From positions 617 to 64,616 of the forward strand of contig CAZZBW010000001.1 of NCBI GenBank assembly GCA_964653045.1: a stretch of 64,000 bases of DNA, given 5' to 3'. The DNA comes from an uncultured Pseudomonadales bacterium. GTDB lineage: Bacteria; Patescibacteriota; Microgenomatia; UBA1400; PJMF01. Below the pieces are notes generated by a model. The model was given only the letters and a program-made list of their open reading frames with translations, made no database searches and had not been told where the DNA came from. Position numbers and translations under genes: made by a program. Positions 6,008-40,424 of the stretch are shown here, in pieces; position 1 is the stretch's first letter, and each line of letters begins with the position of its first letter.

Positions 6008-6045
6008 TGAGAAATAACAAGTTAAAAACTATCGATAAGGAGCAT

Positions 6046-6513: not shown

Positions 6514-6525
6514 ATAGATAAAAAT

Positions 6526-7059: not shown

Positions 7060-10000
7060 CTACTCAGTGAAAAACACTGCGCCATTATTGTAAACCGTCT
7101 GGATTTGGTCTTGAGTCAGGGCGTAGTTGAAGATCTGCACGTCGTCGATTTGACCGTCCCAAGTCGTTGTTGGAGAAGCTTTGCCTGCCCCAATGTACAA
7201 GTTTCCGGTTGAAGTAGTGTCGTACTTAAGGGTTTTGTTTAAGACAACCGATTTTTCCATTTGTCCATTGATATAGATTTTGGCAGTTGCTTGGTCATAG
7301 GTACAAGTTATATGAGTCCAGGTGTTGTTGGGAATATCGTTGACGCTATCAACATCAAGAGCATATGAGTTATCAGTAAAACCTAAAAAGCACTCTACCT
7401 TGTTATCATTGCTCCGGTCATAGATCATTGCATAAGAAGCGAATGGGGCGGCACCATCATTATTATATGTTTTACCAATAATCGACTTTGCTCCAGCGCT
7501 GGTTGTCGTGCGGTACACCCAAGCAGAGTAGGAGATTGAAGCAGGCTCTATAATGCTCGATCTTGGGATAGTAATAAAATCATCCGTACCATCAAAGTTA
7601 AGTGATGCGTTGAACTGCCCGGTGGCACCGTTACCCCAAGCGGTGCTTGGGGTGGAGCAGTCGCCGGCGGCGGTTTGCGCACCGCCGCCAGTCCCACCCC
7701 AAGTCCCATTTAAGTTAGCATCATATGTTTCGTTGCTGGAGTGAACCGTGGTGCCAGAGCACTCGTCCATTTTGTAATGAGCGACTGGATCACCGCGATT
7801 GTAATCCCAGGCAATCTGTGCCGGTGTACGGGCGTAGTTAAAGATTTGAACGTGATCAATTTGGCCTTCAAAAGGATAAGCTGTGTCAGAATCCCACCAA
7901 CCAGCACCAATTTCAATTTTTTCTCCTGCAAGATTGGGGGTACAATTTGAAAATTGATTCGAGGTGGTTTTTTCTTCGCCATTAATATAGATTTTTGTTG
8001 TCGAAGCTATCAATCCTGGACTTTTCACTACAGCGACGTGGTACCAATTGTTATTCTCGGTTATTACTTGTGTGCTGGTGTTTTGTCCACAAGTACCTGT
8101 ATGTAGTCCAATTCGACCACTGCCAGCGCCTGTAACACTGAGAATAATTGCTGCATGATTTCCAGTTCCTGTTACGGTTGGTAAAACACCGACAATTACC
8201 TGGTTTTCTTGTGTGTAGTCAGCGGGATTGATCCACGCCTCAAATGTTCCAGCAAAGTTTCCACTTAGTCCTGTATTGTTACCTGCATATTTAACATAAT
8301 CATTACTTCCATCAAAACTTAAAGCTTTGCCAATTTTGCCGTTTGTCCAGACGGGATCAGTAGTATCAGACCCAGAAGTTGATCCAAGCTGGCCAGTGTT
8401 GGCGTTGCCAGTCGTATCGTTGGTTACTTGGCCAGTACCCTCATCCAACTTCCACTCCGCCACAGGCGCACAACTGCCCGTACTATCTCCAGGTGGGCAG
8501 TACGAGCGGTCACTAGCATTTGAGGCTTCGCCTGACGCATCTGTTGAGAGCGCGCCCATGACGGTGGCTTTGCCCATGTTGAACTCGGCTTGGATTTGGG
8601 ACTCATCCAGAAAATGATTGTAGATTTTTAGCTCGTCGACGTTGAAGTTACTTGCATAATTTCCACCGTTTCCACCAATATAAAGAACGTCACTATAGTT
8701 ATAGACAGTTCCAGTCACTGTGGTTTCTCCCTTAAGTGAGCCGTCAACAAAAAGTCTTAGTTTTCCTGTACCTGAGTCATATTGACACACATAATGATTC
8801 CACTCTCCCAATACGCCGGAGTTATTCACAGCAAAGTTTGCGAGTGAAGTGTTTGCCAGCATACAACCGAAGCTGTTTGAGGCATTAGGTACTATTCCCC
8901 CATGAAATCCAAATTTTGCTATGGTTACTGAGTTTCCCCCATTGGCGTTTTTCTTCAACCATGCGCTGATTGAAAAAGAAGAAGTGCCTGAGTCAATCAA
9001 CCCAGGTAAATTCATCGTTGCATAATCACCATCTGGATTAGCAGCGCCATCAAACGACAATCCTTTGTCAAGTTTACTATTGTTATTCCAGCTAGGGCAG
9101 GTTGTTGCTCCAGGACAGGCTCCGCCCATATCGGCGTTATAACTACTACCCCCACTACCGGAATTGTGAAGTGTCTCGCCATAACCCTCGTCAAATTTCA
9201 AATGGACTAAGGCACTGCCCACCGGACTACCGGGCGGGGGATGCCCGGCGTTCATGTCTTCCACGATTTGTTGGGAAGTGCGGGCGTAGTTATACAACTT
9301 AATATCGTCAAGTTTTCCTTGAAAAGATCTAGTGGTGTAGTTGTAAATCGACCCACCAATCGAAAGTGGTTGACTAGTGGCAACATTGAGGACAATTGAT
9401 TGAGAGGTTTTTTGTTGACCATTTAGAAACTGCTTAATGTTCTGACCGTCATAACTGACAGTAATGTAATTCCATTCTGATAAATTGCCCGTTACTCCAG
9501 TGGCTGAAAAACCGTAGGTCTCAAAATTGAAGCTAGTATCAGTTACTCCGACCCTGGCGCTATTGTATCCACCTGACACATGAGTACCCCAGCCAATTGC
9601 AATATCTTCATAAGATTGTTGCCCCGAATCTTCTGCTTTTGCCCAGAAGCCAACGGTCCATGGTTTGTTAGAAACAACACTTTCAATAGATGCGCTAGAA
9701 TTGACGTTTAAATAATCGGCTCCATTAAACTGAAGACCAGAACTATACTGGCCAACTGTCCAACTGGATTCTGACATGGAACCTTCCATTGTTCCAACAT
9801 TATCTTTTCCTGAGTAATCAAAAGCGGATGTTCCCGTACCCTCGTCAAATTTCCAGTATCCGATTGGTCCTGGCGCCCAGTTGTAGAGAGCTTGAACTTC
9901 GGCGGGGGAGAGGGCGCGGTTGTAAACCCGAGTTTCATCAATGTTACCTTTAAAATTTTGCGAATAGGTACTATGACCTGAAGCACCTATGACAAAAGGA

Positions 10001-13000
10001 TTTGTAGTAGTCAGATCTCCAGCTGTGTCCGGAACTGTACTAACCAACGCTCCATCAAGGTAAAGGTAAAGGTTTTTTGTGTCTGAAACCATTACGCCAT
10101 GGTGCCACAATGTATCTTCAACGCTATTTGGAGAGGCCGCCGTAACTTTACTTGTGCCGTCACCAATTACCGCCTTTAACACACTTCCACCGTAGTCACG
10201 ATCAATATATAAGCTGTAACCTGGACCACTATCGTAGTTATCGCTCCATTTTTTATCAACAATCTGTTGGAAACCGGTAGAACCGGTGGATTTAAACCAA
10301 GCGGAAACTGTGAATTGATCGCTATCGGTCATGCTGAAATTATTACCGAAATTAACCACATCACCGTCTGCGTCAAACAATCCGCCATTGCTGTATTTTC
10401 CGGTACTGATGGTTGCATTGGTAGATGTTCCATTTTTACTGTTGCCGCTGCTATCTAGTACCTCACCTGAGGTACCGTTCCAGCTGGCCTCGTCCATCTT
10501 CCAGTAGCCGACCAAGCCTTGGCCGAGGGCGCCTTCGGCGCCATCACCGATGAATCCCGCGCTGATTCCTTTGACGCTGCCTCTGGCAGCGTACTCGGTC
10601 ATAATTTGAGTCGTATTTAGCGCATAGGTATAGACGCGCACCTCATCGATGAAACCTTTCCACGGATTACTACTGCCATCGCTATCGATGCCAACATAAA
10701 ATGTGGTGTTACTGCCGGACAATCCTCCTGTGGCTGTCAGTGCAGTAGTGACCATCTTCATTCCATCCACATACACATTAATACTATCTGTTTCTTTGAC
10801 CGCAGTGATGAAGTGCCACTCGGAATCGGCAAAGCTATCAGTCGAGCAAGCCGCGTCGTTTGGCCCCCAAGTGCTGTCGTCATCCACGCCAAAACAGACT
10901 TGCCCGCTGGCATTCATGTAGAGTTTGTACCCACTGGAAGAGTAACGACTGATCAGTGTTTGTTGAGCGCTGGCACCCGATGGGGCTTTAAACCAAGTTG
11001 AGACAGTGAAAGGTTTGGTAGTCGGATCGAGCTCAATGTCATTGTTGTAGGTTTTGGTCACGTAATCATTGGTGCCGTCAAACTGGAGACTTTTGCCATC
11101 TGGCGCGGAGCCGTACTCATCATCAGACCAAAGCGCCCCACTAATAGTGGCATTATTACCTTGATTGGAGCTATCGTATGCGATCTCGCCGAAACCATCG
11201 TCAAACTTCCAGAAAGCTACTGGGCCCTCCTGACCAGAAAACTGCTCAGTGTAATCAGTTTGCAGTTCGTGTGAGCCCAGGCCGGAGTAGTAGAGCGAGG
11301 CGACTTCGGAGGCGGTGAGGGAAGTTTGAAATGTTCTAAAATCAGATATATTTTGGTTTGCAATTATTGAATTGACTGTTCCGAGCCTAAAACTTGATGG
11401 AGTTGACATTGTATAGCTAGCATCAGTGCCATTAAGGCTTCCGTTTGAATAACCTCGAAGATTGGATCCGTCCCACGTAATAACATAATGCATCCATTTT
11501 TTAATTGGTGCTGCAGTTAAATTAACACTTCCGTCATTAGCGACATTAATATTAAAATCAACTTGATTAGTGCTTTGACAATTGTTCGTTGATGAAAGAA
11601 CTCTAAGAGCCCCTAAGCCTGAGCCAACATCAATCAAGCCACCTCCGTAATTCCAGCCCCTTCCTGTTCCATCCCAGCAATGATTAAGTTTTATCCAAAA
11701 AGATATTGATCCTGAGTTTTGTAAAATATTGTTTGTAGCGCTAAACGACAAATTGTCGACCTGCCTAGTGCTTGATGAATCATGCTCTGATGATAACCAG
11801 GAGTATCCAGTTCCCAAACTCCCATCAGCATACGTAGTCGCATAGGCCTTTTCCTCCAACTGCACGCCATCGATATAGATAGTTTTGCCAGAAAGAGCCT
11901 GGACGCCGTAGTTGCCGGAGGCATTTGCGGTAGCCGCTGAGTAGGAAAGTCGCCACCAGCCCCCGCCCATATCGGTATAGGCACTTGGTGTAACAACAGA
12001 GCCATTGAACACCAGCTTGGCCGCGGTGGCAGAAACCGCGCCACCCACATTACCTGTCGTGCCATCGTACACATAAGCAGATAGAGTATGAGTGTTGGTA
12101 TTGCCAGGGTTGATTGAAGTCACATACCCTCGACCATCTCCCCCAATATTGACTAATTTAGCCGAACTAGTGGCGAACTTACTGTATGGAGAAGTAGTGT
12201 TCTGAGAGGCAGAAATTGGTTCTGGGGCCAGTGCTGCATCTCCCTGATTTGCTCCGTTGGAATTTGAACCCCAGTAGGCAATGTTGGGGGCGTCGGCAAA
12301 GGTACTGGGGATAGACGACAAGGTAATCCTAGCCGTGCCGTCCACTGACAGCACCATCGTGCCGCCGCCAGTGTACGTAATTTGCATGGCATAAGTGGTG
12401 CCGGCGCTGATCGCGCCAGTGGCAGTCCAGGTAGAACTGGTGACTGTGCCGCCATTCATCTGATACTCTAGTCTCAAGGTGTTGGCGGCACTCCAGTACA
12501 GAGCAATGTAATCTGTGGCGCCACTCATCAGCTTGGCAATGTATGGAGTCGTTTCACCAAACTTGGCAACATCCGCCGCTGAGTGGCGCGGCGTGTACGA
12601 GAAATTAATCGTACCTGTGCTAGCCGTGAGTGAGGGTAGGGTATGGGTGTAGGTGTCCTTACCATCAACACGAAGTTGGTCAGATTCGGTGGAGGAAGAT
12701 AAGGAAGAGGGACTAACGATCACCATTGCAGGGTTTAAAGTGTATGAGTAAAAATCATCCCAGTCTGAAGTTGTCCCCCCACTTGCTCCAGATTGAGCCT
12801 GTCCCGAGAAGTTGTTTGAATTTACTGCTTTTACTATTCCGTTATATCTTTTCCAAACCAAGTTGCTATTTTCCGCACCCATTGAAAAACCACAGTTTGG
12901 ATCAGTTGGAGAACAGTAGTTTGTTTGCAATTGGAAACCCGTATTGTAATTACTTCGAAAGTATTGTGGGTAGGTTGGGGTTCCATAATCATATTTATAA

Positions 13001-16000
13001 AAACCAAATGAAAAAAATTGATCAGTAGTTTTTGCAATTGTTCCAGAATTTATTCCTTCATACCATGACGAGCCATCAACGTAGGTTATCTTGAACGAAC
13101 TTAGACCAGACCGGTTATTAGTTGTCTCTTGTATTCCTTCTCCAGGCTCTAAGTTACTACTGCTCCACCATGTTGGAATCCATGGATCTCCAGCTCCAAT
13201 TTCAAAAGAGGGATTTGAAAATTTATTTTCTAAAACTTCCACCTGGTGCCAGTAAGCCGTGCCGCTAGCAGCTGTGCTTACTAGTTTAATTCTTACTGTT
13301 GTTGTGGCAGTTTGGCCACCAGTTAAGTTGGTACCAGAAACTGTAGTATTGTCAGCAGTTTCTGAGAGAGCGACATTTCCAGATGCTCCAGCGTTAATTG
13401 CTGTAAGGATGATATTTCCTCCTGATGCAGCAGCAGTCACCACTGTATGTGCAGTAACACCAGTTCCGTATTTATAGTTAGTATTTAGTGTTCCAGCATT
13501 GGTAATCGCTCTGCGTAAATTATCAGCAGTATTGGTATAGGCAGCACCGATTAGTACCCAGGCCTCGCCTGGATTTGGTGTTCCGAGTAGTGAAGTTTTA
13601 AAGATGTATGTTTGTGTGTCAATAGTGACGGTTTGAGTATCGGCAGGTTGGCCAGTCATGCTAATCCATCCGCGCGCTTTACCATCCGGTGCCTCACCAG
13701 TGAACAACAGCATGTTTGGCGCGGTCCGAGTAGAAGTGGTAGTACCAGTTAGGCTGCCAATCTCTGCACCATTAGTTTGATCGAAGAGAATTAATTTAGG
13801 TACAGAAGTACCATCAGAGTGAGCTAATCCCCTGATAACAAAATCTTGTCCTGCTGTAACAGTAATGTCTTTATATATTCCTTCATTAGCAGCATCTGAA
13901 GTAACTTTGTATCCACCACCATAGATCTTCTCAGTACTAGCTAGAGCAGCTACAGAAGTAGGTGTACCTTCATCAGCAAATCCATCAGTAGTGTAAGTAC
14001 CATTAAGCATGAATCCAGCTGCACCGTTAGTGCCTCCTAATAAGTTACTCGCGTGTGGGTGGGACCACGCTTCGCCGGTGCCAGTTACGAGATTTCCTAC
14101 TGAAGAATTTGTGGGCAAGGCAAAGACAATATCCCAGGAGCCGGTAATCAGGGTGGGATCGGTGCCACCTGAGTTTTTGACTACTGTGACCTCGTCTACA
14201 CCAGCGTTGGCATTCACGCCATACATTCCATCAAATAATACACGCCGATAGATAGTCAGTCCTTCAATCAGACCAGACGCCGCCCCAGTGGTGCCATTTG
14301 AACCCACATAAATCTTGGTGGCTGGTACTGAAGCCGAAGGTTGAGTAGTAATGCCATACGTATGCGTATCGTCAATCGAGAGTGCGGCATAGTTTGTGCC
14401 ATCAAGAGTGGTTTTAGTATCCCAGCGCGCCACTAATCCTTGGGAAGTACCAGCCACAATATTTGAGGCTACAGTCATTGTTTGACCACCAGCGCCAAGT
14501 TGGTATCGGTCATTGGCGTAATCATAGGCCAGGTAATAGTTGGCGTTGGCATAATACAGATAATGAAGACCAGAACCGGATAGAGAGTTGTATGAATATT
14601 CTGGTGTCCACCACAGCGCCACCGAGCCTTGGGTAGTGTCAAAGTTGGTATAAAAATACTCACCGATAGATTTTTCGCGGTGGAAGGAGAGGGTATCATC
14701 GGTTAAACCGCTGGTGTTAGTTGGATCACCTTGAACCAGAACACCAGCGGTGAATGGACCTGAGCTGGAGCCATTACGCTTTGCCAGACTTGGGTTGGTG
14801 GGGCTAAAACGGACGTCGGCCAAGATGAATGTTGAGCCAGTGGTGGCTGGTGCGAATAAGGCATCTCCTTGTCGGTCACCTTCTTTACGCGAGCCCCAAA
14901 AGGCGAGGTAAGGCGCTACGGCAAAGTTGGCGGGGATGGTGCTCAAGGTAATGCGGGTGGTGCCAGCAACTGCTAATGTCATATTCGAACCGCCGGTGTA
15001 ATCGATCTGGATGTCGTAGGTAGTCCCAGCCACAATCGCGCCGGTAGCATTCCAAGTACTACTGCCGGTGGTGCCATTCATGCTGTAAGCCAAGGTAATA
15101 GTGTTGGCGGCATTCCAGTACAGGCGGATGTAGTCAGTGGCGGTGCCCACAAACTCAGCAATATATGCATCAGTGACCTCGATGAATTTGAGTGCATCCG
15201 CAGCTGAGTGGCGGGGAGTGTACTTGAATTTTATCGAGCCGGAACCATCGCTTAAGCTAGAGATTTCTTGAATCGCCATATCGCGGCCATCCACACGCAG
15301 GCCGGCGGTTTCAGTTGAGTTGAGTTGAGAGGAGGGAGTGAGAAATAAATTAATGTCTTGATTTTGTACCACATATAAATCATCTACCAGGGTGTATGTT
15401 GCGTAACTGGGGTGACCAAGCAAAGCAAAAGCATTGTTCCAAAGAGCTGCCCCGAACCTAGCCACTCCTTTGCTGTGTGTCCATGCAGTATCTGCTGATC
15501 CAACAGCAAACGTTGTGTTTGGAAGATGTTGAAATGTTAGAGCATTTGAGGCGTTATACGAACTAAATCTTGGAGCGTAAGATGAGGAGGTAACTTTATT
15601 AAACCCTCCAATAGAATAAAAACCGTTTGGAGATGTAAAAATATTTGTTGTCCAAATATTTTTGATATTACTCCAGCCGCTCATAAGTATTGAGTTAGCT
15701 CCACTATGAGCGTCCGCAGAGCTTGAAAGTTCTCCTACCGCAGGTCCTGGAGATCCACCACTCCAACCAGTTGGCATCCAAGGATCACCTGACCCTGATG
15801 CAAAAGAGGGATTGGTAAGTAAATTTCGTATCACCTCTACCTGATGCCAGTAAGCAATCCCAGATGCAGCAGTATTGATTAGCTTGACTCGAATAGTGGT
15901 ACATCCCGTGGGTGCCTCACCAGTAAACAACAGCATGTTTGGCGCGGTCCGAGTAGAAGTGGTAGTACCAGTTAGGCTGCCAATCTCTGCACCATTAGTT

Positions 16001-18672
16001 TGATCGAAGAGAATTAATTTAGGTACAGAAGTACCATCAGAGTGAGCTAATCCTCGTATGACAAAATCTTGTCCAGCTGTAACAGTAATGTCTTTATATA
16101 TACCTTCATTAGCTGCATCTGAAGTAACTTTATAACCACCCCCATAGATCTTTTCGGTACTAGAGAGTGCGACCACAGAACTTGGTGTACCTTCATCGGC
16201 AAAACCATCAGCAGTATAGGTGCCATTGAGCATAAACCCAGCTGCTCCATTCGTCCCTCCCAACAAGTTGCTCGCATGAGGATGTGACCAAGCTTCGCCG
16301 GTGCCAGAGCTCATGGCTCCCACACTACTATTAGTAGGCAGTGCAAACACCACATCCCAAGAACCAGTGACAAGAGTTGGGTCTTTAGAACTTGCCACAG
16401 AACCATTCCAAACTTGAGAGAGCTCATTCCCATTACCAACATCAATACCATTGGTCCCATCAAATAAGGGCCTTCTATAGATTGTTAAACCTTCAATGAT
16501 AGCGTTGGCAGGATACTGACCCAACCAGGTTGCATGACCAACCCCGCCAATTGTAAATGCTCCTGAATAGTTGTTGCTTGTAATAGCAGTTGTTCTTCCG
16601 TACGTGGTGGTGCCATTAACTGTTAGACTCAAATAGTTTGTACCATCAAGCGTATTATCAAGGTCCCATCTAGCAACAACCTGGTAGGTAGTTCCAGCAG
16701 TCCAACTAATGGGCACGCTCAGACTTTGGTTATATGCTAGGTCTAAGACTAGACTGGAAGTGTCGTGATAAACCTGGAACCAGTTGTGATGGGAGAGAAA
16801 CACATGTCTTCCCGAGCCTGCTCCAGAGTTCCATTCTGGAGTTACCCAAAAAACCACAGAACCCTGGTTTCGATCAAAGATATCACCAAACTGATTAGAA
16901 ATTACTTTTGGAGTTTGAACCTTAATCAGATCTCGTGGATACTGAGCATCCGAAGAATAACCACCTTGGACAATGGGGGCGGCGGTAAATGGGCCGGGGG
17001 CATTGCGCTTGGCGAGCGATTGACTGCCTTGGGTGAAAGTTTCAAAAGAGTTGCCCCCGGCCGACCAATTGGTATTGTAGGTAGTGTGTTCAAAGCTGGG
17101 ATTGGTGATTTTGTTGGTGGTGCCTTCTTCGATGAAAACACCTTCGTGAGAAGCATATGATTGAGATGGAGCTTTGCCAGTGTCGGTGGCGGAGGCATCG
17201 ACACCCACTAGGCCAGAAACGTACTTGGCACCGGTGATGGTGCCGTGATTAGCGTTGCCTGAATCGTCAATGGCTTTGCCAGTATTGCGTGGGTCATCGC
17301 CGTTTTCATCAAAGTGGAGGAGGAGCTTGGTGTACTCGTCACGGACGAAGGGAGTGGTTTGGGGGGTGAAGTTGGTGGCATAGCGCTTGATGTTGGAGAT
17401 TCTAACTTCATCTTGCAAACCTCTGTAATAAATACTTGATCCGGAAGCAGCACCAAGAGTAAGGTTAGACGTGTTATCAGTTGCGTATGTACCGCTACCA
17501 GCTGTTTTTGATGAATTAGATAAGACACCGTTAAGATAAATATCGCTACTTTTTGTCGTGGCATCCCACACAACGGCCCAGTGAATCCATTGATCTGAAG
17601 AAGTGCCAGAAGAGTAAGTGCGAGCATCACTGGTCAGATTCACAACAAAATCAATCATTGACGGGCTAGTTCCACCAGCCAGTCTAACAAGCCAACCCCC
17701 AGTACCTCCTTTAGAAATTAAAATAGGATAATTGCCGTTTTGAGTGTTTCTATACATCCATCCCTCAACCGTCATATCAGAATTTGGTAAATCGTCTAGA
17801 CTACCATCTGTTCCTGAATCTAATGTGTCATTGATTCCATCAAAACTCATTGCGCTTTTGGCGCCGGAGTAGCGGATGGCGCCGGTGGCGGTGGTGGGGG
17901 TTTCGGCACCGGCGCTGTTGACGCAAGTGGTATCGCCGTTGAAAGGGCAAACAAGCGTGGCTTGTTTGCCACCAACATCAAAAGCGCTGACGCTGGCTTC
18001 GGAAACGGCGGAATCGTTATCGTAGTATAAATAGTACTCAGTATCAGTAACATTATTACTCAAACTGGCTTGGAGCGGGAAGTAGAGCTTGGTCGCTTCG
18101 CTATCGCTGCAACCGGTTGTACCAGAGGCAGGATCGAAATAGTAAGCGAGCTTAGTATTGGTATTTTCATCCGGCTGGTAATAGATCCGCAGGTCAGAGC
18201 AATCGCTATTTAGATCACCAGCGTCCACCAGCTCCTTGGTATTTAGAGTAATGGAGTAGGTGGTGGTGGCGATTAAGGTTTGTCCAGAGTTGTTGATTAG
18301 GCTGAGGCGTTTACGTTTCTGCCAATCTGTGGCAGTGGTGGCCCAGGGGGCAGCCTTGGTCTGATTAGGGCGAATTAGAGTCAGGTAAACAGTTGGACCG
18401 ACCAGGAGAATCAGCGCACCCGCGAAGAGGGCCAGCTTGCGACGGTGGGCGCGCAGGCGCGCAGGAATAATTGACCACAATCGGCTATTACTTATTATTT
18501 TGAGTAACTTTGTGCCTTTTTGAGTAACTAATTTTGCTAATTTGTTCCGGATTGGTTTTGTGTGATTAAGTAACCTTGGCGCATATTTAGATACAAATAA
18601 ATGCAATTGATGGAGTAACTTAAAAAAGGATCGAGAAAAGTGGGTAGTAAATTGGGCAACGCGGTATTTCAT
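7060..18672 (-). CDS. Giant (3870 aa) membrane-anchored surface protein with CBM4/9-like modules and at least 7 LamG (concanavalin-A-like lectin) domains
   Basis: Basic N-terminus plus one TM helix (LALFAGALILLVGPTVYLTLI). Repeated NPSFE...W modules. Seven C-terminal LamG signatures (e.g. DEVRVYTYALNTTQI, DETRVYNRALSPAEVQALYN, DDVQIFNYALTQDQI). Start codon lies 1 nt after the stop of the upstream giant ORF. Confidence 0.8.
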   Translation of the reverse strand: MKYRVAQFTTHFSRSFFKLLHQLHLFVSKYAPRLLNHTKPIRNKLAKLVTQKGTKLLKIISNSRLWSIIPARLRAHRRKLALFAGALILLVGPTVYLTLIRPNQTKAAPWATTATDWQKRKRLSLINNSGQTLIATTTYSITLNTKELVDAGDLNSDCSDLRIYYQPDENTNTKLAYYFDPASGTTGCSDSEATKLYFPLQASLSNNVTDTEYYLYYDNDSAVSEASVSAFDVGGKQATLVCPFNGDTTCVNSAGAETPTTATGAIRYSGAKSAMSFDGINDTLDSGTDGSLDDLPNSDMTVEGWMYRNTQNGNYPILISKGGTGGWLVRLAGGTSPSMIDFVVNLTSDARTYSSGTSSDQWIHWAVVWDATTKSSDIYLNGVLSNSSKTAGSGTYATDNTSNLTLGAASGSSIYYRGLQDEVRISNIKRYATNFTPQTTPFVRDEYTKLLLHFDENGDDPRNTGKAIDDSGNANHGTITGAKYVSGLVGVDASATDTGKAPSQSYASHEGVFIEEGTTNKITNPSFEHTTYNTNWSAGGNSFETFTQGSQSLAKRNAPGPFTAAPIVQGGYSSDAQYPRDLIKVQTPKVISNQFGDIFDRNQGSVVFWVTPEWNSGAGSGRHVFLSHHNWFQVYHDTSSLVLDLAYNQSLSVPISWTAGTTYQVVARWDLDNTLDGTNYLSLTVNGTTTYGRTTAITSNNYSGAFTIGGVGHATWLGQYPANAIIEGLTIYRRPLFDGTNGIDVGNGNELSQVWNGSVASSKDPTLVTGSWDVVFALPTNSSVGAMSSGTGEAWSHPHASNLLGGTNGAAGFMLNGTYTADGFADEGTPSSVVALSSTEKIYGGGYKVTSDAANEGIYKDITVTAGQDFVIRGLAHSDGTSVPKLILFDQTNGAEIGSLTGTTTSTRTAPNMLLFTGEAPTGCTTIRVKLINTAASGIAYWHQVEVIRNLLTNPSFASGSGDPWMPTGWSGGSPGPAVGELSSSADAHSGANSILMSGWSNIKNIWTTNIFTSPNGFYSIGGFNKVTSSSYAPRFSSYNASNALTFQHLPNTTFAVGSADTAWTHSKGVARFGAALWNNAFALLGHPSYATYTLVDDLYVVQNQDINLFLTPSSQLNSTETAGLRVDGRDMAIQEISSLSDGSGSIKFKYTPRHSAADALKFIEVTDAYIAEFVGTATDYIRLYWNAANTITLAYSMNGTTGSSTWNATGAIVAGTTYDIQIDYTGGSNMTLAVAGTTRITLSTIPANFAVAPYLAFWGSRKEGDRQGDALFAPATTGSTFILADVRFSPTNPSLAKRNGSSSGPFTAGVLVQGDPTNTSGLTDDTLSFHREKSIGEYFYTNFDTTQGSVALWWTPEYSYNSLSGSGLHYLYYANANYYLAYDYANDRYQLGAGGQTMTVASNIVAGTSQGLVARWDTKTTLDGTNYAALSIDDTHTYGITTQPSASVPATKIYVGSNGTTGAASGLIEGLTIYRRVLFDGMYGVNANAGVDEVTVVKNSGGTDPTLITGSWDIVFALPTNSSVGNLVTGTGEAWSHPHASNLLGGTNGAAGFMLNGTYTTDGFADEGTPTSVAALASTEKIYGGGYKVTSDAANEGIYKDITVTAGQDFVIRGLAHSDGTSVPKLILFDQTNGAEIGSLTGTTTSTRTAPNMLLFTGEAPDGKARGWISMTGQPADTQTVTIDTQTYIFKTSLLGTPNPGEAWVLIGAAYTNTADNLRRAITNAGTLNTNYKYGTGVTAHTVVTAAASGGNIILTAINAGASGNVALSETADNTTVSGTNLTGGQTATTTVRIKLVSTAASGTAYWHQVEVLENKFSNPSFEIGAGDPWIPTWWSSSNLEPGEGIQETTNNRSGLSSFKITYVDGSSWYEGINSGTIAKTTDQFFSFGFYKYDYGTPTYPQYFRSNYNTGFQLQTNYCSPTDPNCGFSMGAENSNLVWKRYNGIVKAVNSNNFSGQAQSGASGGTTSDWDDFYSYTLNPAMVIVSPSSLSSSTESDQLRVDGKDTYTHTLPSLTASTGTINFSYTPRHSAADVAKFGETTPYIAKLMSGATDYIALYWSAANTLRLEYQMNGGTVTSSTWTATGAISAGTTYAMQITYTGGGTMVLSVDGTARITLSSIPSTFADAPNIAYWGSNSNGANQGDAALAPEPISASQNTTSPYSKFATSSAKLVNIGGDGRGYVTSINPGNTNTHTLSAYVYDGTTGNVGGAVSATAAKLVFNGSVVTPSAYTDMGGGWWRLSYSAATANASGNYGVQALSGKTIYIDGVQLEEKAYATTYADGSLGTGYSWLSSEHDSSSTRQVDNLSFSATNNILQNSGSISFWIKLNHCWDGTGRGWNYGGGLIDVGSGLGALRVLSSTNNCQSTNQVDFNINVANDGSVNLTAAPIKKWMHYVITWDGSNLRGYSNGSLNGTDASYTMSTPSSFRLGTVNSIIANQNISDFRTFQTSLTASEVASLYYSGLGSHELQTDYTEQFSGQEGPVAFWKFDDGFGEIAYDSSNQGNNATISGALWSDDEYGSAPDGKSLQFDGTNDYVTKTYNNDIELDPTTKPFTVSTWFKAPSGASAQQTLISRYSSSGYKLYMNASGQVCFGVDDDSTWGPNDAACSTDSFADSEWHFITAVKETDSINVYVDGMKMVTTALTATGGLSGSNTTFYVGIDSDGSSNPWKGFIDEVRVYTYALNTTQIMTEYAARGSVKGISAGFIGDGAEGALGQGLVGYWKMDEASWNGTSGEVLDSSGNSKNGTSTNATISTGKYSNGGLFDADGDVVNFGNNFSMTDSDQFTVSAWFKSTGSTGFQQIVDKKWSDNYDSGPGYSLYIDRDYGGSVLKAVIGDGTSKVTAASPNSVEDTLWHHGVMVSDTKNLYLYLDGALVSTVPDTAGDLTTTNPFVIGASGHSTYSQNFKGNIDETRVYNRALSPAEVQALYNWAPGPIGYWKFDEGTGTSAFDYSGKDNVGTMEGSMSESSWTVGQYSSGLQFNGADYLNVNSSASIESVVSNKPWTVGFWAKAEDSGQQSYEDIAIGWGTHVSGGYNSARVGVTDTSFNFETYGFSATGVTGNLSEWNYITVSYDGQNIKQFLNGQQKTSQSIVLNVATSQPLSIGGSIYNYTTRSFQGKLDDIKLYNYARTSQQIVEDMNAGHPPPGSPVGSALVHLKFDEGYGETLHNSGSGGSSYNADMGGACPGATTCPSWNNNSKLDKGLSFDGAANPDGDYATMNLPGLIDSGTSSFSISAWLKKNANGGNSVTIAKFGFHGGIVPNASNSFGCMLANTSLANFAVNNSGVLGEWNHYVCQYDSGTGKLRLFVDGSLKGETTVTGTVYNYSDVLYIGGNGGNYASNFNVDELKIYNHFLDESQIQAEFNMGKATVMGALSTDASGEASNASDRSYCPPGDSTGSCAPVAEWKLDEGTGQVTNDTTGNANTGQLGSTSGSDTTDPVWTNGKIGKALSFDGSNDYVKYAGNNTGLSGNFAGTFEAWINPADYTQENQVIVGVLPTVTGTGNHAAIILSVTGAGSGRIGLHTGTCGQNTSTQVITENNNWYHVAVVKSPGLIASTTKIYINGEEKTTSNQFSNCTPNLAGEKIEIGAGWWDSDTAYPFEGQIDHVQIFNYARTPAQIAWDYNRGDPVAHYKMDECSGTTVHSSNETYDANLNGTWGGTGGGAQTAAGDCSTPSTAWGNGATGQFNASLNFDGTDDFITIPRSSIIEPASISYSAWVYRTTTSAGAKSIIGKTYNNDGAAPFASYAMIYDRSNDNKVECFLGFTDNSYALDVDSVNDIPNNTWTHITCTYDQATAKIYINGQMEKSVVLNKTLKYDTTSTGNLYIGAGKASPTTTWDGQIDDVQIFNYALTQDQIQTVYNNGAVFFTE
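13688..14300. repeat. About 600-bp intragenic repeat in the 3870-aa gene, copy A (about 95% identical to 15912-16520)
   Basis: Both copies encode TGEAWSHPHASNLLGGTNGAAGFMLNGTYT.DGFADEGTP...KLILFDQTNGAEIGSLTGTTTSTRTAPNMLLFTGEAP with only a few substitutions. Confidence 0.75.
15912..16520. repeat. About 600-bp intragenic repeat in the 3870-aa gene, copy B
   Basis: See copy A. Confidence 0.75.
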
Positions 18673-18673: not shown

Positions 18674-21600
18674 TTAATTAACTATCCACCAATTAAATTG
18701 TAAGTCAGTATCCAGAGCTTGATCAACCGCCACACTGAAGTGGCCGGGGATGATCACTGTCTCTTCTGGCTTTTCCTCAGTTGCTTCAGTAATAATCTCT
18801 TGATCAGGCTGCTGCGAAGCGACGTACAGCACTTGATTCTGGGTGCTGCCTAGCGGAGTGATATAGACCAGGGATTTGTCAGTTATGGCTGAGGTCTCGA
18901 TCACCAGTAATGATTGGCCGGCGGGGAGGACGGCTTTGCCAGATGTCTTATCAGTGTTAATCACTGTATCTGCCGAGGCAGAGGCAGACTGGTCGCTCAA
19001 GTCTTCGCTGCCGATGCCGATCCCGCCGGCAAACTCAGCTCTGCCTTGAGCTGAGATGGTGGCCACGGGAGCGCCCGTGGCATCAACAATCTCGAAGCGG
19101 GAGTTTTTCAACTCGCCACTCTCACTGCTCGCACCAGCCACCTGCACTTGGAAGGGATTACCGAAATCAACTGGTTGGAGCAGGTTGCTCAAGAGTGAGC
19201 CTTCGGTGGTGATGTCACCAGCCACATGGAGGTTGCCGGTGATGTTGACCAGGCCGGTTTCGTCGAGGGTCATCAGCCCAGCCATGATCGAGAGCACGCC
19301 CTTGCCTGAGGGCTGAATCTGGAAGATAGCTAGCTCGCCCTCAGCTTCGGGATTGGCGGTAAAAGCCAAGTAGTTTTCAGTCAGCTGGACTTTATTACCA
19401 ATATTCAATTGTTGGCCAATGCCCAAGCTTTCAGCAATATAGCCAGTGCCATTAACGCGGAAGTACTCCTCGATGAAAAGGGCAGAGCCATTCAGGACTA
19501 CTTCTTCTTCAGTTAGGCTCAACTCTTCCAATGACTTATCAAAGCTGCTTAGCTCTTGGACAGTTGAGTCTAAGGAGGCGATCAACTGATTGATTTGATC
19601 TAGTTCTTGAGTAATTTCAGATTTTTCGTTGAAGAATAGCTCTGATAACGAAGGCTGAGTGAACGCCTCAGCGATATGCTGATCTAGATCGGCGATGTTT
19701 TCGACATATAGAGTACCAGAGACGGTGGCGTTTGCCAAAGAGGCGGTGAGCGCCGTGACCTCGTCGATCTTGGCCAGGTTTGACTCGATTACGTCAAACC
19801 TGGCCGCAGTTGCTTCAAGATCGGTAGCTTTGAGCTCGAGCTCAAAGCTCCCACTGTCCGCCACCAAGTTTTGTGTATCAACAGTGGTTGTCGTTACTGA
19901 GCTAGCGCTTAGTCCACCGCTGACAGTGACTTCTTGGGCGTTCAGCTCACCAAGCAGAGTGGGTTGAGTTGGGTCAAAGCTAACTGGGTCAGTCACACTC
20001 GGAGTAGGAGTGGGGCTAACCGCGCTTAATCTTTGGGCAATGCGCTCATCCAGGTATTGATCGATCGGGATTTGATTAATTGCTAATGTATTTACCTCAA
20101 GTTCATTGATTTCCGCGCGGCGATTGACAACCAAATCACTTAATTGCAGTATTTCTGGGATTGAAGCAATCAGCCCACTGGTATTTGCTAGAGCTTCATC
20201 AACTATCTCACGGACATAGATGGATAATGATTTTCCTCCGACTGATAAGGCATCAGCGGCAACATTTGTGGCTGAGATAGAATTAGCGACTAAGTTTGAG
20301 ATCAAAGCCTGGGTTGGAATACTAACTCGATTTATGACAGCTTCAGTGAAGCTGGCCTTGCCTGTTGCATCTACAGAAGCAAGGATTTTGCCCGTGTCAC
20401 CCTTGAACTCTAGACTGTTTGTCGTGATATTACGAGAAGCCAACTGATCAGTTATGATTTGATTGGACTCAACGATGGGTGAGACGAGCTTGTCTTCGAC
20501 AAAAATTTCTTTTGATAATACCAAACCAGCTGTGAGTTCGCCGATCATGCTTTGAGAGAAGGCTGATACCCGGTTGATTTTTTGACCACTTGGATCATAG
20601 ACGTCATATGAGCTATCAGCGGTGTGTGACAGGGATAATTGGCTGACACTTGTCAGCGAAGTGTCCGGATCAAACCAGCCAGGGTTAACAAAGGCGATTA
20701 CTTTTCCGATTAAGGTCCCGTCTGGAAGCCGATAGCAATCTTTGGTATATTCCAAAGGACTGCCGCCCTTGGGAAAATCTGGCCACAGTATGCCTTCGGC
20801 TGACGCCACGTACTGACAGCTTGCAGGATCGGGATTGAAGTTTTGTAATACATAACCAGCGCTGAAGCCAGCCTGTGAGCTGCGCATGCCAATACCAGGT
20901 AGATTTGAGCTAGTCACCCTATCCCCAGTTTTCAACGGACCGTTAATTGTGGATACCTTGACTGGTACTCTCCCGGCGAGAGCGACAGCCTTTTCCAAGT
21001 TTGGTGATTTTTTGTTTTCTCCCTCAGAATCATCCCATGGGATTCCTCCAATAAAACCAGGTTGTGTAGATACAATACCAACTAAGTTCTCGTCATATTG
21101 CCTCGAAGCCCTATCTAGTGTTTCAATCACACCGTCATTTGCGACTACTGATACCAGATCTCCTTTGGAGACACTTGTCTCGTTGACGTATGGGAATTTT
21201 TCGGCGTAGTCAAAAGAAGCACTTGACCAACCACCTCCTTCCGCTGTGTTGTACTGGGCGGTGGCAGAATCTGTCCAAAACCTGAACATTTTATCATCAT
21301 CAAGAGCGGCCATGTATATAAAACCTGCAGTTGAGGTGTTGGTTGCTCCCCCCAATATCCCTGCGTTATTCGCATTTATTTTGAGGTTCCCACCATAGAT
21401 CTCGAGTTTTTGACCAGCGCCCGTTGTTGTTCCGATGCCGAGATTACCGGAGGCAGTTAATATCATTTTCAGAGAGTTATTTGTGCCAAATCTAATATTT
21501 GAACCCGCCCTGTTCCAAATAAGTGCGTCATTTCCTTCACCGGTATAAGCGGAACCTCTTAGTCCAACAAGAAACAGGTCGCTTGACGCATTATTTCCAA

Positions 21601-24600
21601 ACTGCAAGAAGTTTGAAGCGCTGGTGCCGGTGCTTGTATTAGTTAAGTTTGCCGTGTAAGAGCTGCCATCTAGAGATGTAACAATATTCAACTTTGATGC
21701 TGGAGCAGTTGTCCCGATACCAACGTTGTCGCCGCTAATTGATAGCCTGGTGGCATCGGATCCTCCAGCAAAGGTATTAAAATCAAGTCTGCCTATTTCA
21801 CTGCCGGCAGTACTGCTAACAATATTCGCATTCATACTGGCATATTCTTGTTCAGCAAAGCCACTATCTAGTCCACCAAATGCAATTTCTCCCAAATTGG
21901 CTCCATTAGAATTGCTTGTGGTTTTTAGATAAAAAACACCAGCGGGAGAATTGCCACCCAACTGAAGATTAACGCCGCTAAGGACGCTGGACGTCTTTAT
22001 ACCAACATTTCCTATCACGATAGTATTTCTAAGAGCAGTATCTCCATCTACTTCCAAAGCGTCTTGCACATACAAATCTCCATCGCCTGTGGCACTGTTT
22101 ATTGTTCCTCCACTGCCAATCCGAACTTCATCTCCAGTTATTTGTAATTTGCCTAATGGGTTTGTTATCCCGATTCCGACGTTGCCTGTCCCGGCAGGCA
22201 TGAGGCTTAGGTGTTCGTTGGTGGCAGTAGTAATATCACTGGCGACGCCTGAAAAGTTGAGTGTTCCAGTCATGGTGTCGCCAGTGATATTCACCCAGTT
22301 GTCTGTAGAAGCAGGCATGTAGTAACTACCATGTTGATTATCTAGTAAATCTGCATTGAGATTTGTATTTAGAGTGGTAGAGGTAACAGCAAATGGAGAT
22401 GTACCTACAGCCAGTGAAGAAGTAATTTGACCTGAGTAGTTACCTAAGACACTATAGATATTGGCAAATCGAATGGCTGATGATCCCAGTTTTGAAGTGT
22501 TATTAGTTTGTCCACCAATATCTCCAGAGACCTGAAGCTTGAAGTTATTGGGATTGGTGGTTTCAATCCCGACGTTGCCGCCAAAATACGCAGCAACATT
22601 AGTATCTGCACCTGTTGGAGTTTCAACATACAAACCATAATTAGTTGAAGTACCGGTAAGGTTCATTGAGAGGGCGTTTTGGATATAGACACCATAGGCA
22701 TTAATAGTTCCACTAGTAACATTTCCACCTGCCTGGAATCTACCACCAATGGAGTGGGTAGTAGCGCCGTTGACTCCGGAGCTCCAACCAGAAAATTGTC
22801 CGCCGATAGTGTACTGTGTGCCTGTGGTTATCGCTGACATCTGGGAAGCCTGCAGAGCTCCTGCGGTAGTGGTACTGGCAGTGGTAGAAGTTGTTTGATA
22901 GTCGCTAATTAGACCAACACCAGCAGTTGCGGTACCAGTTAATCTGGTTTGAAAGATCGCCCCGAAACCGTACGCACCTGAAGCCAACGCGTCTTGAACT
23001 CGAAGTTTGGCATTTGGATTCGTCGTTCCAATACCGACGTTGCCGTTTCCTTTTATTGTAAGAGCATTTATAGGAGCGACTGCAGTTTTCGTTCGTATAA
23101 ATATATCTCCGTTATCATTGTTATATAAATTATCGATATATGAAGCTCCTGTACTATTATCATAAGTAAACTTTAATCCTTCGGTGGTAAGCGAGTCCCT
23201 ATCACTTAGAAATAGTACAGGATCAGTAGACTCGTTTGCAGATGCAATTTGAATATTACCATCGACATCGAGCTTTTGAAGTGGATTCGTTGTCCCGATA
23301 CCGACGTTACCGGCTGAGTCGATTCGCATTCTTTCAGTTCCTGTTGTAGTTGTTCCGTTAGCGGCGGTATAGAACAGCATATATGTAGTTGCATTCATCG
23401 CAGGTGTTCCTCCACCAAAGTGAAGAATGTTGTAGCCATTTTCACTTTGGGTTGTTGCTATTGCCACTGGTTCTTCTGCGTTAGTGTAATGATATCCTCC
23501 AAAACGACCCCATTTTTGTGTTGCGTTCGTTCTGGTTGAGGCTCCACTATCTGCTCCTAATATTAAAGCTAGTTGACCGTCGGCAATGTCTAACTTCCCG
23601 CCCGGACTTGTCGTTCCAATTCCTACCAGGTCACCAACTGTTGTTAGTCTCACAACGCTGCCATCATCTGTCCAACCACCGCCAATTGGACCGCCGGCAT
23701 TGATTGCTTCTCTGATACCTTGTTCTGTGACCAAAGTTGTGTCGTCGCCAGTAGCACCAACTGTAGTGGCAATGTAATTGACATTAGCACCTGTGGCCAA
23801 TTTAAGATCACCGTTGATGTGGAGTTTGGCAGAAGGAGTGGTGGTGCCGATGCCGACGTTGCCGTTGGCTGAAATTCTTAATCGCTCGTTGCCTGCAGCA
23901 CTTCCGGCAGTGAACATGGATATTACTCCCGCGGCGTTATTGGCTGTGAGAGACAAACCTCCTGAGTCATATCCAACTAAAGCTGTGGTGAGCGGAGCAT
24001 ATGCGCCTGAACCAGAGTAAGTTGAGCCGATGGAGTGAAGTGCAGCACCAACCGCTGCATCGGCATTACCACTATTTATTCTTAAAACACCATAGCCAGC
24101 GGTATTGGTATTGTCGATGAAAGCGCCGATACTACCGGTTGATGAACCACTGATAGCTAATTTATTGCCTGGAGAAGTGGTGCCAATACCGACGTTGCCA
24201 CCATTAGTTTGTAATGCTAATGCTTGATTACTCGCTTCCGTTGTCAAAATGGCATAGGAGTTATATACATTGAAATCCAGACCGGAACTTACTCCACCGA
24301 GACGCAAAGCGTTTCCGTTTGATCCATAAATGAATTGACCGTTCCCAACAACATCCAGTTTGTAACTCGGAGCAGTGGTGCCGATGCCGACATTGCTAGC
24401 AAGTGGATTTAAGATGAGAGGTGTTGATCCGTATGTTTGTATCCAACCGTAACTACCGGAAAGGTGTCCCATCGCAGTGCCGAACGCCCCTGAGGAAGGT
24501 GGTGTTCCTGAATCACTGATATCAGAATATCCACCAACAACACGTAATTTTGCTGATGGACTCGTCGTTCCAATACCCACGTTACCATTAGCAAAGATCG

Positions 24601-27600
24601 CGGCATAATTTGCAGTAGTGCCACCCGTTGCACTTGCATACAGCCCTACATTGGTTGAAGTTGTGCCGGCATGAGTATTGGTAATATATGCACCATAAGT
24701 TGTTTGAGCCGAAGTAACATTTGTGCCAGAAAGAGAAATATTCAAGCCTTTTTGAGTACTGCCAGTTGCTGCAGTAGAAGTTGTGACTAAGTCTAGTAAA
24801 GAACCAGAGCTTAGAGTGCTGGAACTGATTGCCAGCCCTTTGCCCGTAGTAAGTGAGTTGACATTGATTGCCATGGCATTACCAGTTGCGGTCGCATCAT
24901 CTAGCTGAAAGCCGTTGCCCGTATGAGCACCTGTGAAGTTAAATCTCACTCCACCATTACTGAAAGCTGAAGTAGAAGGAGAAGTAACATACAGAGCATT
25001 CCCAGTCAGTCCAGTTCCACCGGCTGTAATAGATAGGGCCGTGCCTGATGTCAGAGCAGTACCGGAGATACTGGATAGAGTTCCTGTTGTAGCTGAGTTA
25101 GCTGTCAGAGTCAGTAGCCCTGTCCCGGTATATATTCCGGTAGTAGCAATGGTGGCGCCGTTACCTGCGGTAGCGGCGCCCATATCTATATTAAGTAACT
25201 TTCCTCCCGTTGTCAGGCCTGCTCCAGAGCGAGCAAGAGAGAACATCGTTCCACTAGTTAGAGAAGTACTACTAGATGTTAGACCTGTACCAGTAGTCAG
25301 AGAGTTCCATGTCCAAGTAGAAGTATTAGCTCCCATTGTTAGTGACTGAGCACCCACTGGACTCTGAATCGCATCCCAGGTAGTACTACCAGTAGAGATA
25401 GTTGTCCAAGAAGTATTACCACTCCCATCTGTAGTCAGCATCTGATTAAGATCACCATCATTAGCAGGTAAAGTCAGAGTCCAATCACCTGCTGCTTCTG
25501 CAGGTTGGATTTGAGTGTAACCAGAAGTGTTGCCAGTTAGCCTGAGCGTTCCTCTACTAGTTCCTGCCGTACCTAGTTGAAGCATGGCACTGGGAGCAGT
25601 GGTACCGATGCCGACGTTGCCACTAACTATCATTGATCCTGCCCCAGGATCAGTGACTATATAGCCATTTCCCAAAGATAAGCCACCAGTTGCAGATAAT
25701 CGCATTTTTTCTGAACCAGCGGTTTGGAAGCCAATTAAGCTGTTTTGGTAACCATATATTGTTGAGGTGCCCCAAGACACACCATAGCCATCAGAAAGAC
25801 CGATATAGCCTGAATCGACTGTTAATTTATACGTTGGACTGGTTGTCCCAATTCCCACATTCCCCATAAAGTGACCTGTGCCAGTATTAGCATCTGCTCT
25901 GAACTTAGCACTGGCGGTGGAGTTACCACCGATATATAGATTAAGAGACTGATTAGTAGGAGAGAGTCCTTGGTTAGCTAGTGTCCAGTAGTTAGTACCC
26001 ACAGTAGTAGGATCTGTCCAAGTCGGAGCTGTATTAGCCCCAGCAGAAGTCAATAGATATCCAGACGTTCCTGCTGCTGCTCCTGGCATGATTGCACCAG
26101 AAAATTGGAGATTACCAGCAATATCTAACTTCTGAGTTGGATTAGTACTTCCGATACCAACGTTGCCGGCAGTGGGGGCCATGATCAGATTAGCTGCGGG
26201 AGTGATGGTGATATTACCAGTGCTGTTGGCAATGGTGGAGGCAGCTCCAGCGATGTGGAGTCTGGCAGTAGGGTTAGTTGTGCCAATACCCAAGTTGCCT
26301 GTGAAGTGGCCAGTGCCGGTATCAGCATCTGCTCTGAACTTGGCACTGGCTGTAGAGTTACCACCTATATATAGGTTAAGAGTTGTGTTGGTGGGGTATA
26401 AACCTTGGTTAGCTAGACTCCAGTAAGACCCACCTCCTGTAGCAGTCATCTCAATCCAGGTAGGATCAGCTCCAGCCCCATTGGTAGAGAGGACATAGCC
26501 AGCCGTACTAGGAGCGAGGGTAGACATGGCACCTGTGTTATTGAAGAAAGGTACACTTCCTCTAGCTACTGCACTCCAGTTCTGACCAGTACCACCATAG
26601 GTAGTGCTCAATGTTCCCCAGGTGGGAGCAGCAGCTCCACCAGAAATGAGAGCCATACCAGAAGTACCAGCTGTTAAGTGTCCATAAGCAGCAGTCCCAG
26701 TAGAGTAGATGATCTCACCAGCTCCACCAGCAGTCATGTTAGCTCCCAGGCCTCCACGAGTGACATTAACATACTGTTCTGCAGCGAGAGTGTTAGAGTC
26801 TGGTGACCAGTAAGCGTTGTAACCATTTGTCCCAGAACCATCAACCAATGAAGTTCCCCAGACCCTAGTATCAATGCTCCGAGTCTGGAGAGTACCTGAG
26901 CTATGAGTAACAACTGTATCAGTGCTACCGGCACCTAATGTACCAACTACCAAATTATCATCTGTCTTAAGAGTATCTGCGGCAGAGCGATAGAGATTAG
27001 TATCACTGCCAAAGCCAATTCCTCCCACAGCTGTGGTAGCTGCGGCTAGGTTGAGCTTGAAAGCTGGAGCGGTGGTACCGATACCGACGTTGCCGGAAAC
27101 TTGTTGGACAAAAAACGGATCAATTACTCCATAAGTATCAATATATACACCCTGTCCTGAAACAGCTCGAATCGAATGATTAATATCTAGCATATATAGC
27201 GTGTTATTAACAAGCGCGTTACCGACCACTTCTAATTTCTGCGTTGGAACCGTTGTCCCAATCCCTACATTCCCCATGAAGTGACCAGCACCAGTATTGG
27301 CATCTGCTCTGAACTTAGCACTGGCTGTGGAGTTACCACCAACATATAGATTGAGAGTAGTATTAGTTGGATGAAGTCCTTGGTTAGCTAGTGTCCAGTA
27401 GTTAGTACCAACAGTAGTAGGATCTGTCCAAGTCGGAGCTGTATTAGCTCCAGCTGAAGTCAATAGATATCCAGATGTTCCTGCTGCTGCTCCGGGCATG
27501 ATTGCACCAGAGAACTGGAGATTACCAACAATATCGAGTTTCTGAGCAGGAGCGGTACTACCGATACCGACGTTGCCAGAATCAACAATAAGACCATAGT

Positions 27601-40401: not shown

Positions 40402-40424
40402 ATTTGGCTTAAAGTTAATATTTA

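Follow-up and report, generated by a model that had tools for sequence, protein, structure and literature searches.

We show here that a giant open reading frame (ORF) from an uncultured bacterium encodes a string of about 19 beta-sandwich modules behind a transmembrane (TM) helix. The ORF lies in a 64,000-nucleotide (nt) stretch of contig CAZZBW010000001.1, which we refer to as the window. Its product of 3870 amino acids (aa) is predicted to be a multivalent lectin-type adhesin for the surface of a host cell, a function that we infer with moderate confidence. Past the TM helix the order is a weak DUF2341-like segment, one LamG domain, two tandem copies of a four-domain cassette, a domain related to the head spike fibre of gene transfer agents (GTA) and seven further LamG domains; about 88% of the protein is assigned to beta-sandwich modules of the binding type. 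The gene is a single ORF on the minus strand (7060-18672), as are all of its features given below. It starts with ATG and runs over 11.6 kb without internal stop codons, and the GC content is even along the whole gene. Hydropathy and sequence place a single N-terminal TM helix at aa 79-101 (18370..18438), preceded by a K/R-rich segment of 78 aa. Nowhere else does the Kyte-Doolittle hydropathy (19-residue windows) exceed 1.6, and the helix is probably a signal anchor with N-in/C-out orientation. The DUF2341-like segment follows at aa ~157-228 (17989..18204). With 15.6 bits (E 0.023) it stays under the Pfam gathering threshold of 23.4 bits for PF10102 (DUF2341) and is not assigned to this family, which is carried by the relative P0009 and by a neighbouring gene at locus L066. 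An earlier note on this DNA had called the protein a poly-lectin. That description holds for the many lectin-type modules and the eight Laminin_G_3 domains above the Pfam threshold; the NPSFE modules, however, are not independent beads, but parts of the duplicated four-domain cassette.

Pfam Laminin_G_3 (PF13385), a family of the ConA-like lectin/glucanase clan, matches the protein with E 6e-166 and 546 bits overall in nine stretches, which segment scans and a self-built hidden Markov model (HMM) resolve into eight domains. Single segments score between 60.7 and 109.4 bits, above the gathering threshold of 27.6 bits, and therefore belong to the family. One of the eight, LamG domain 1, is found near the N-terminus (aa 254-439, 17356..17913, E 2.7e-19, boundaries from the HMM scan) and seven fill the C-terminal 1600 aa. 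Domain 2 (aa 2262-2461, 11290..11889) also takes its boundaries from the HMM scan; Pfam sees two Laminin_G_3 stretches in aa 2370-2710. Domain 3 (aa 2498-2694, 10591..11181) matches Laminin_G_3 with E 3e-31 and in addition Toxin_R_bind_N with E 6e-8. The array continues with domain 4 (aa 2735-2932, 9877..10470, E 2.1e-30), domain 5 (aa 2948-3142, 9247..9831, E 2.3e-16), domain 6 (aa 3175-3366, 8575..9150, E 6.3e-21), domain 7 (aa 3417-3625, 7798..8424, E 7.1e-26) and domain 8 (aa 3662-3862, 7087..7689, E 2.4e-31). Hence the earlier count of at least seven LamG domains in the C-terminal half is borne out by Pfam and HMM, with one more domain near the N-terminus. The exact hallmark motif by which they had been recognized does not occur (0 matches), while a loosened form has 6 matches against a mean of 0.03 in shuffled sequences. 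Between the second cassette copy and the C-terminal LamG array sits the GTA head-spike-fibre-like domain (aa 2166-2281, 11830..12177). Here the NCBIfam model NF048003 (GTA_spike_fiber) reaches 41.5 bits (E 1.9e-10), above its cut-off of 36, so that this domain counts as a member of the family.

Self-comparison of the protein revealed two tandem copies of a unit of ~740 aa (aa 546-1275 and 1289-2150) that are 22-90% identical, depending on the domain. Copy 1 (aa 545-1274, 14851..17040) consists of D1 (LamG-like, aa 545-753), D2 (carbohydrate-binding module (CBM)-like, aa 769-951), D3 (CBM-like, aa 952-1114, starting with NPSFASG) and D4 (LamG-like, aa 1115-1274). Copy 2 (aa 1293-2148, 12229..14796), delimited by self-comparison and HMM scan, contains D1' (aa 1293-1496), D2' (aa 1510-1662 and 1788-1816), D3' (aa 1819-1989, starting with NPSFEIG) and D4' (aa 1990-2148). 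The domain order of the cassette is LamG-like, CBM-like, CBM-like, LamG-like. A linker ahead of copy 1 (aa 440-544, 17041..17355) contains, by sequence, the first NPSFE (aa 524) and a strand motif (LLLHFDENG...) of the LamG N-terminal type in truncated form. In the AlphaFold2 (AF2) model, the predicted local distance difference test (pLDDT) lies below 50 over aa 515-541. For the cassette, AF2 with an alignment of 47 sequences returned an all-beta model (pLDDT 83, predicted template modelling score (pTM) 0.87), which indicates four jellyrolls packed into one rigid unit. In profile-profile comparison with hhalign, D1 and D4 match the LamG repeats of the same protein at 89% and 82% and each other at 96%; D2 and D3 match each other at 70% and show no relation to LamG. 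At the D1/D2 junction (aa ~792-805 and 1533-1546) the sequence GTGEAWSHPH(A/S)SNLL is near-invariant throughout the cassette family.

The CBM-like domains resemble known CBMs at the level of the fold. By structural superposition on solved CBMs they share the CBM4/16/22/61-type beta-sandwich, and the best matches of single domains in the structure comparison are to lectins and CBMs without catalytic function. The cassette family profile, searched against PDB sequences, gave marginal matches to CBM61 (2xom) with E 9.4e-4 and CBM16 (2zex) with E 7e-3, both covering the whole of D3, and NPSxE was aligned to the NPGFE start of CBM61. Assignment to the CBM4/9/22 families, as originally proposed, is not borne out. 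CBM_4_9 (PF02018) is absent at E<=1 from all segments of aa 515-2400 and at E<=0.01 from 47 cassette homologues, a precomputed PF02018 match being found on one distant relative only (P0048). In a Pfam scan of aa 1-2400 in nine segments at E<=1, nothing came up for aa 515-2400 but a spurious PA14 (E 0.2), and with phmmer the same stretch matched none of the PDB sequences. Since no CBM model of Pfam matches even at E<=1, membership in CBM4/9/22 is unsupported and a fold-level resemblance is what is left. More generally, none of the searched models of Pfam, NCBIfam and PHROGs matches the cassette family. The Pfam scan suggested as a check for CBM and Laminin_G_3 domains thus returned the latter and none of the former. 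The suggestion of three or more CBMs, each opened by an NPSFE...W signature, is right about the motif and wrong about the number: NPSF occurs three times (aa 524, 954 and 1820) and NPSL once (aa 1293) where 0.04 are expected from composition, and the alignment to CBM61 fits. However, only the NPSF at aa 954 and 1820 open CBM-like domains, while the motifs at aa 524 and 1293 precede the LamG-like D1.

The cassette is also found outside of giant proteins. A homology search with copy 1 yielded 189 relatives. Many of these stand alone, with 710-790 aa, align over 93-96% of the unit and are 35-49% identical to it. When 1.84 billion cluster representatives were searched exhaustively with a profile, 1253 proteins passed E<=1e-3, of which 431 also passed E<=1e-30. 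The family comes in three architectures: stand-alone (~740 aa), ~1250-aa and giant (2300-4000 aa). In four aligned members (P0025, P0030, P0072 and P0076, proteins of Roizmanbacteria and Dojkabacteria) a prepilin N-terminus is fused to the cassette. The 3870-aa protein itself is no modular type IV pilin; this identity was rejected, as it lacks a prepilin N-terminus and has an ordinary TM anchor at aa 79-101. No N_methyl match was found in aa 1-110, and the G-F-T-L-I-E motif is absent from the ORF in the scan that detected three pilins encoded next to it. Stand-alone members have no signal peptides and several of them are encoded on phage-like contigs. In L048 the cassette gene (3170-5413) shares its contig with terminase (TerL), portal, Mom and ParB genes; L052 and L055 carry terminase (TerL) genes; L065 (cassette at 7211-9448) and the similar L047 carry HNH, methylase and glycosidase genes; and L067 (cassette at 9001-11256) carries a tail-tube gene. 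A phosphoesterase-like gene (phrog_7339) was seen near the stand-alone cassette gene of both L047 and L048. The phage stand-alone protein is probably virion-associated. In BFVD, the cassette structure matches minor tail proteins, tail-fibre proteins and adhesins at E 1e-18 to 1e-9 and low template modelling (TM) scores. PHROGs had nothing for the cassette or its phage homologues, and tblastn of the cassette against 50,697 GenBank phage records found no match, so the link to phages comes from metagenomic contigs alone. Thus, the cassette is reused by phages and pilins. Phages would use it as a stand-alone protein and other Patescibacteria as the head of modular type IV pilins, and receptor binding is a role that suits both. 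On larger contigs that are not of phage type, the stand-alone cassette gene is followed by Peptidase_C25 (gingipain-type) genes (L043, 10364-13146; L045/L046, ~11000-13205; L066, 14026-14430 and 19372-20235), and at L066 it also lies near a DUF7948-DUF2341-Laminin_G_3 protein.

Could the cassette be an enzyme? The cassette, or the orphan insertion in its second copy, might be catalytic (a jellyroll glycanase, lyase or peptidase) and degrade or remodel polymers of the host surface, with the LamG array targeting the enzyme. The family contains a set of invariant or near-invariant polar residues (Q55, D67, D86, Q89, R219, D259, W281, H283, H285, R359, D583, D584, R612, R640 and H641) that would suit an active site, one family member weakly matches Alginate_lyase2, and Peptidase_C25 genes stand beside the cellular stand-alone homologues. 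Yet searches of the 3870-aa protein against Pfam, NCBIfam and PDB sequences found no catalytic domain or enzyme family above threshold, the strongest single-domain matches are the non-catalytic lectins and CBMs mentioned above, and those enzyme structures that were matched were probably hit through their non-catalytic LamG-type domains. We therefore consider catalysis improbable compared with a lectin-type adhesin.

The two cassette copies have not diverged evenly. Identity between them is 38% for D1 (family-wide mean 44%), 90% for D2 (mean 50%), 22% for D3 (mean 32%) and 60% for D4 (mean 37%). At the DNA level, blastn finds a repeat of 397 nt with 89.4% identity, formed by 13688-14084 in copy 2 and 15911-16307 in copy 1. 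An exact run within it measures 128 nt (13703-13830), and identity drops from 98-100% to 64-70% by ~14150. A duplication of about 600 bp at about 95% identity had been reported here; over that full range (13688-14300) the ungapped identity is 70.5%, and the repeat proper is shorter and less similar than was thought. Codon-level comparison separates two causes of likeness. In aa 764-823 the proteins are 80-97% identical with third positions near random (~0.4), which reflects purifying selection on this motif-rich, family-wide conserved segment. In aa 854-913, third positions are 83-100% identical, which points to a recent exchange between the copies. A recent duplication as the sole cause of the high D2 identity was therefore rejected: most of the similarity reflects purifying selection, and recent conversion is confined to the 3' ~200-300 nt. 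Another sample contains an ortholog (P0121, locus L068) that is built with the same two cassettes and the same insert and is 77% identical over aa 238-1862. Over the last 70 codons of D2, the two paralogues of the 3870-aa gene are 96% identical to each other, whereas either of them reaches 85-86% with its orthologous counterpart in L068. There are positions at which the paralogues agree within each genome but differ between the genomes (S versus A, F versus Y). Such a pattern is the mark of gene conversion after the lineages had split. The DNA repeat is a gene-conversion tract, the most alike piece of a larger and much older cassette duplication.

The tract ends flush at the edge of an orphan insertion of 125 aa (aa 1663-1787, 13312..13686), which the alignment places in the last loop of D2'. 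Neither copy 1 nor any of 45 other family members in the alignment has it, while P0121 keeps it at 87%. Searches of Pfam (E<=1), PHROGs and PDB and a word-based homology search returned no homologues and no family or structure matches; matches to tetratricopeptide repeats in PDB were judged spurious. The single-sequence AF2 model (pLDDT 37) is unusable.

The repeat and the phage homologues bring up a further explanation, namely that the cassette region is recently captured phage tail-fibre material, making the protein a chimera without an adaptive adhesin role, or that the repeat is an artefact of assembly. Stand-alone homologues do exist on phage contigs, and the exact 3870-aa product is unrecorded in other assemblies. 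A 77%-identical ortholog from another sample with the same two cassettes and insert is hard to reconcile with such a history, as are the intact frame over 11.6 kb and the uniform GC content of the gene. The repeat arms differ at 11% of positions, in frame and within diverged flanks, which is not expected of a collapsed or duplicated assembly. We regard this explanation as very improbable. Another idea, tentative and in our view rather doubtful, is that the cassette is a self-contained unit for receptor binding that moves between virion proteins of phages, type IV pilin heads and giant Patescibacteria surface proteins, in which the hypervariable D3 and lineage-specific loop insertions such as the 125-aa insert would set the target, and D2 would be a constrained scaffold homogenised by gene conversion.

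The gene has a probable large partner. Immediately upstream lies an ORF of 5860 aa (18674..36256, minus strand) with a TM helix at ~aa 263-286, and the ATG of the 3870-aa ORF (18672-18670) is found 1 nt past the TAA of this ORF (18676-18674). The spacer of 1 nt argues for tight coupling; the two ORFs are probably co-transcribed and translationally coupled, and the 5860-aa product is a membrane-anchored, fibre-like protein. Two of its stretches match the beta-helix of the Bdellovibrio fibre protein Bd2133 (PDB 8ond) with E 1.4e-7 and 2e-7, and ~11 of 40 related loci have a relative of this ORF upstream in the same orientation. The coupling to an upstream fibre-like protein, asserted earlier, is thus supported by the spacer and by the Bd2133 matches at E ~1e-7. 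Ahead of its TM helix the 5860-aa ORF has a Phage_int_SAM_1-like domain (its aa 93-171), and Pfam gave no further domain in the remaining ~5600 aa. A cytoplasmic domain of the kind that binds integrase cores is an odd finding on a giant fibre protein.

How might the 3870-aa protein act? The TM helix anchors it in the membrane, and many weak sites for surface polysaccharides or glycoproteins could sum to a firm and specific attachment of the ultrasmall cell to its host. Its probable partner in this is the fibre protein, which is anchored in the membrane as well and encoded 1 nt upstream. Within the cassette, D2 may be a strongly conserved scaffold that is kept alike between the copies by gene conversion, and D3, the most variable domain (22% between copies), is the likeliest determinant of specificity. 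Several observations weigh against this picture. Folds of the LamG, pentraxin and CBM type can also bind proteins or lipids or serve as spacers. No CBM model of Pfam of any kind matches the cassette, the sequence-level likeness to CBM61 and CBM16 is marginal (E ~1e-3 to 1e-2), and TM-scores to multi-domain targets are low (~0.15-0.25). The invariant His, Asp and Arg residues, including those of WSHPH, may form a site for metal or catalysis and not one for sugars, and Peptidase_C25 genes adjoin the cellular stand-alone homologues. The nearest ortholog locus, L068, is without the upstream fibre gene, and pilin-like ORFs lie within 10 kb in 1 of 40 related loci.

Alternatively, the protein might bind other proteins rather than glycans, or be mainly a structural coat or spacer that spans or shields the envelope, with jellyrolls as rigid building blocks. 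The predicted rigidity of the four-domain block (pTM 0.87) is in line with such a role, the conservation of D2 (90% between paralogues and 91-96% between orthologues, compared to 77% overall) would suit a structural or protein-interaction core, and coat-like ORFs of giant size have been suggested for other ultrasmall bacteria (PMC10066038). However, the nearest matches of the small domains are sugar-binding CBMs, a domain homologous to a capsule-binding fibre is present, and pilin heads and phages, which also use the cassette, would be expected to bind receptors with it. A coat or protein-binding role is thus unlikely in our judgement, if less so than catalysis, and we favour the lectin-type adhesin.

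The window is cellular and encodes Obg, leucyl-tRNA synthetase (LeuRS), arginyl-tRNA synthetase (ArgRS), ComEC, an M23/LysM peptidase and three tRNAs. Proteins named Patescibacteria, Pacebacteria and Woesebacteria share 61-65% identity with the LeuRS, and relatives of the whole 3870-aa protein in GTDB species-representative genomes, the best at 35% identity, come mostly from metagenome-assembled genomes of Patescibacteria. By these sequence comparisons, the gene belongs to a Patescibacteria bacterium (Candidate Phyla Radiation (CPR), Microgenomates-like). Genes identical to those of the window are present in the Logan assemblies of SRR8925802 and SRR8925769. The L068 ortholog has an in-frame TAG at codon 2563, seven codons before the contig end, where the database translation gives Q. 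The ortholog may stop behind LamG-2, or else the TAG is an error at the end of the contig. Three consecutive small prepilin genes with N-terminal methylation motifs (5537-6990, plus strand) run towards the 3' end of the 3870-aa gene and are thus convergent with it. Because such adjacency was found in 1 of 40 related loci only, we do not take it as functional linkage, and a conserved pilus-adhesin locus was rejected. Upstream of the giant pair, a gene run on the minus strand (37791-44471) includes a Big_13/SdrD_B protein and one with a weak WxL-interacting peptidoglycan-binding domain; three other genes of the run have no Pfam match in a scan that covered it except for 43770-44471. This run may be part of a wider surface-protein locus. 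At 55530-62279 (plus strand) the window encodes another large protein of surface type, which has 2249 aa and contains seven Ig_Rha78A_N domains. ComEC functions are split over two overlapping ORFs on the plus strand, 47906-49231 (Competence) followed by 49228-50103 (metallo-beta-lactamase). GC content dips to 0.38 at 36001-38000, compared with ~0.46 elsewhere; this segment takes in the intergenic DNA ahead of the giant pair as well as an ORF that no Pfam model matches (36740-37486).

Host recognition and attachment by ultrasmall Patescibacteria are largely unknown, and giant ConA-like proteins are routinely named as candidates without an analysis at the domain level. The present analysis contributes a nearly complete module map and evidence that the cassette copies have evolved in concert, and it delineates a cassette family that has no model in Pfam, NCBIfam or PHROGs and is linked to phages and pilins. 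The map suggests concrete units for binding work, namely D2-D3, the GTA-spike-like domain and single LamG modules. Should the cassette indeed be a mobile receptor-binding unit, its phylogeny together with D3 typing could predict host ranges of uncultured CPR bacteria and phages.

The 3870-aa protein belongs to a known protein type and is no new kind of system, since proposed adhesins of this sort, large and DUF2341- or ConA-like, have been described before from Patescibacteria and from other ultrasmall symbionts (PMC11809585, PMC12911398, PMC10066038). With its 3870 aa, Patescibacteria relatives, TM helix and LamG domains it has what marks a giant putative Patescibacteria adhesin. It shares with these proteins the very large ORF in a reduced Patescibacteria genome, the N-terminal anchor, multiple Laminin_G_3 domains, the weak DUF2341-like segment, the lack of a full-length close homologue (best 35% among GTDB representatives) and signs of recombination-driven evolution. 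It differs in its near-complete domain map, in the duplicated cassette without Pfam, NCBIfam or PHROG model, in the GTA head-spike-fibre-like domain and in the absence of FhaB-type domains. Compared with the CBMs of CBM61, CBM16, CBM4 and CBM22 (PDB 2xom, 2zew, 4bj0 and 1h6x), the CBM-like domains of the cassette are not appended to an enzyme but packed in a rigid four-domain unit. In PilC of Streptococcus sanguinis a ConA-like module on a modular type IV pilin is a proven lectin that binds sialylated glycans (PMC9934059). Here too, a beta-sandwich of the ConA superfamily would be displayed on the cell surface for glycan binding, and the cassette itself is fused to prepilin N-termini elsewhere; however, the 3870-aa protein has no class III (prepilin) signal and ~19 modules instead of one, and the adjacent pilin genes are convergent. 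The head spike fibre of RcGTA (rcc01080) binds capsular polysaccharide in Rhodobacter (PMC10218006). Its likeness to aa 2166-2281 exceeds the NF048003 cut-off, but in our case it is an internal domain of a cellular membrane protein and not a capsid-attached fibre. Haloarchaeal TafC is the tip subunit of Tat fimbriae with a LamG head (NF052521; PMC11821415). The LamG repeats match this head with 192 bits in five stretches, at profile positions 147-362 only, which is far under the equivalog cut-off of 410 and leaves the protein outside of this family, and neither a TafA-like donor-strand domain nor a Tat signal is present. Bdellovibrio, finally, uses mosaic adhesive trimer (MAT) fibres, including the prey-recognition fibre Bd2133 (PMC10769870). 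The 5860-aa ORF shares beta-helix stretches with Bd2133 (E ~1e-7), and the bacterium, as presumed from its phylum, depends on other cells. However, this likeness lies in the neighbouring gene and not in the 3870-aa protein, and the 5860-aa ORF is ~5x longer than MAT proteins and carries an N-terminal TM anchor.

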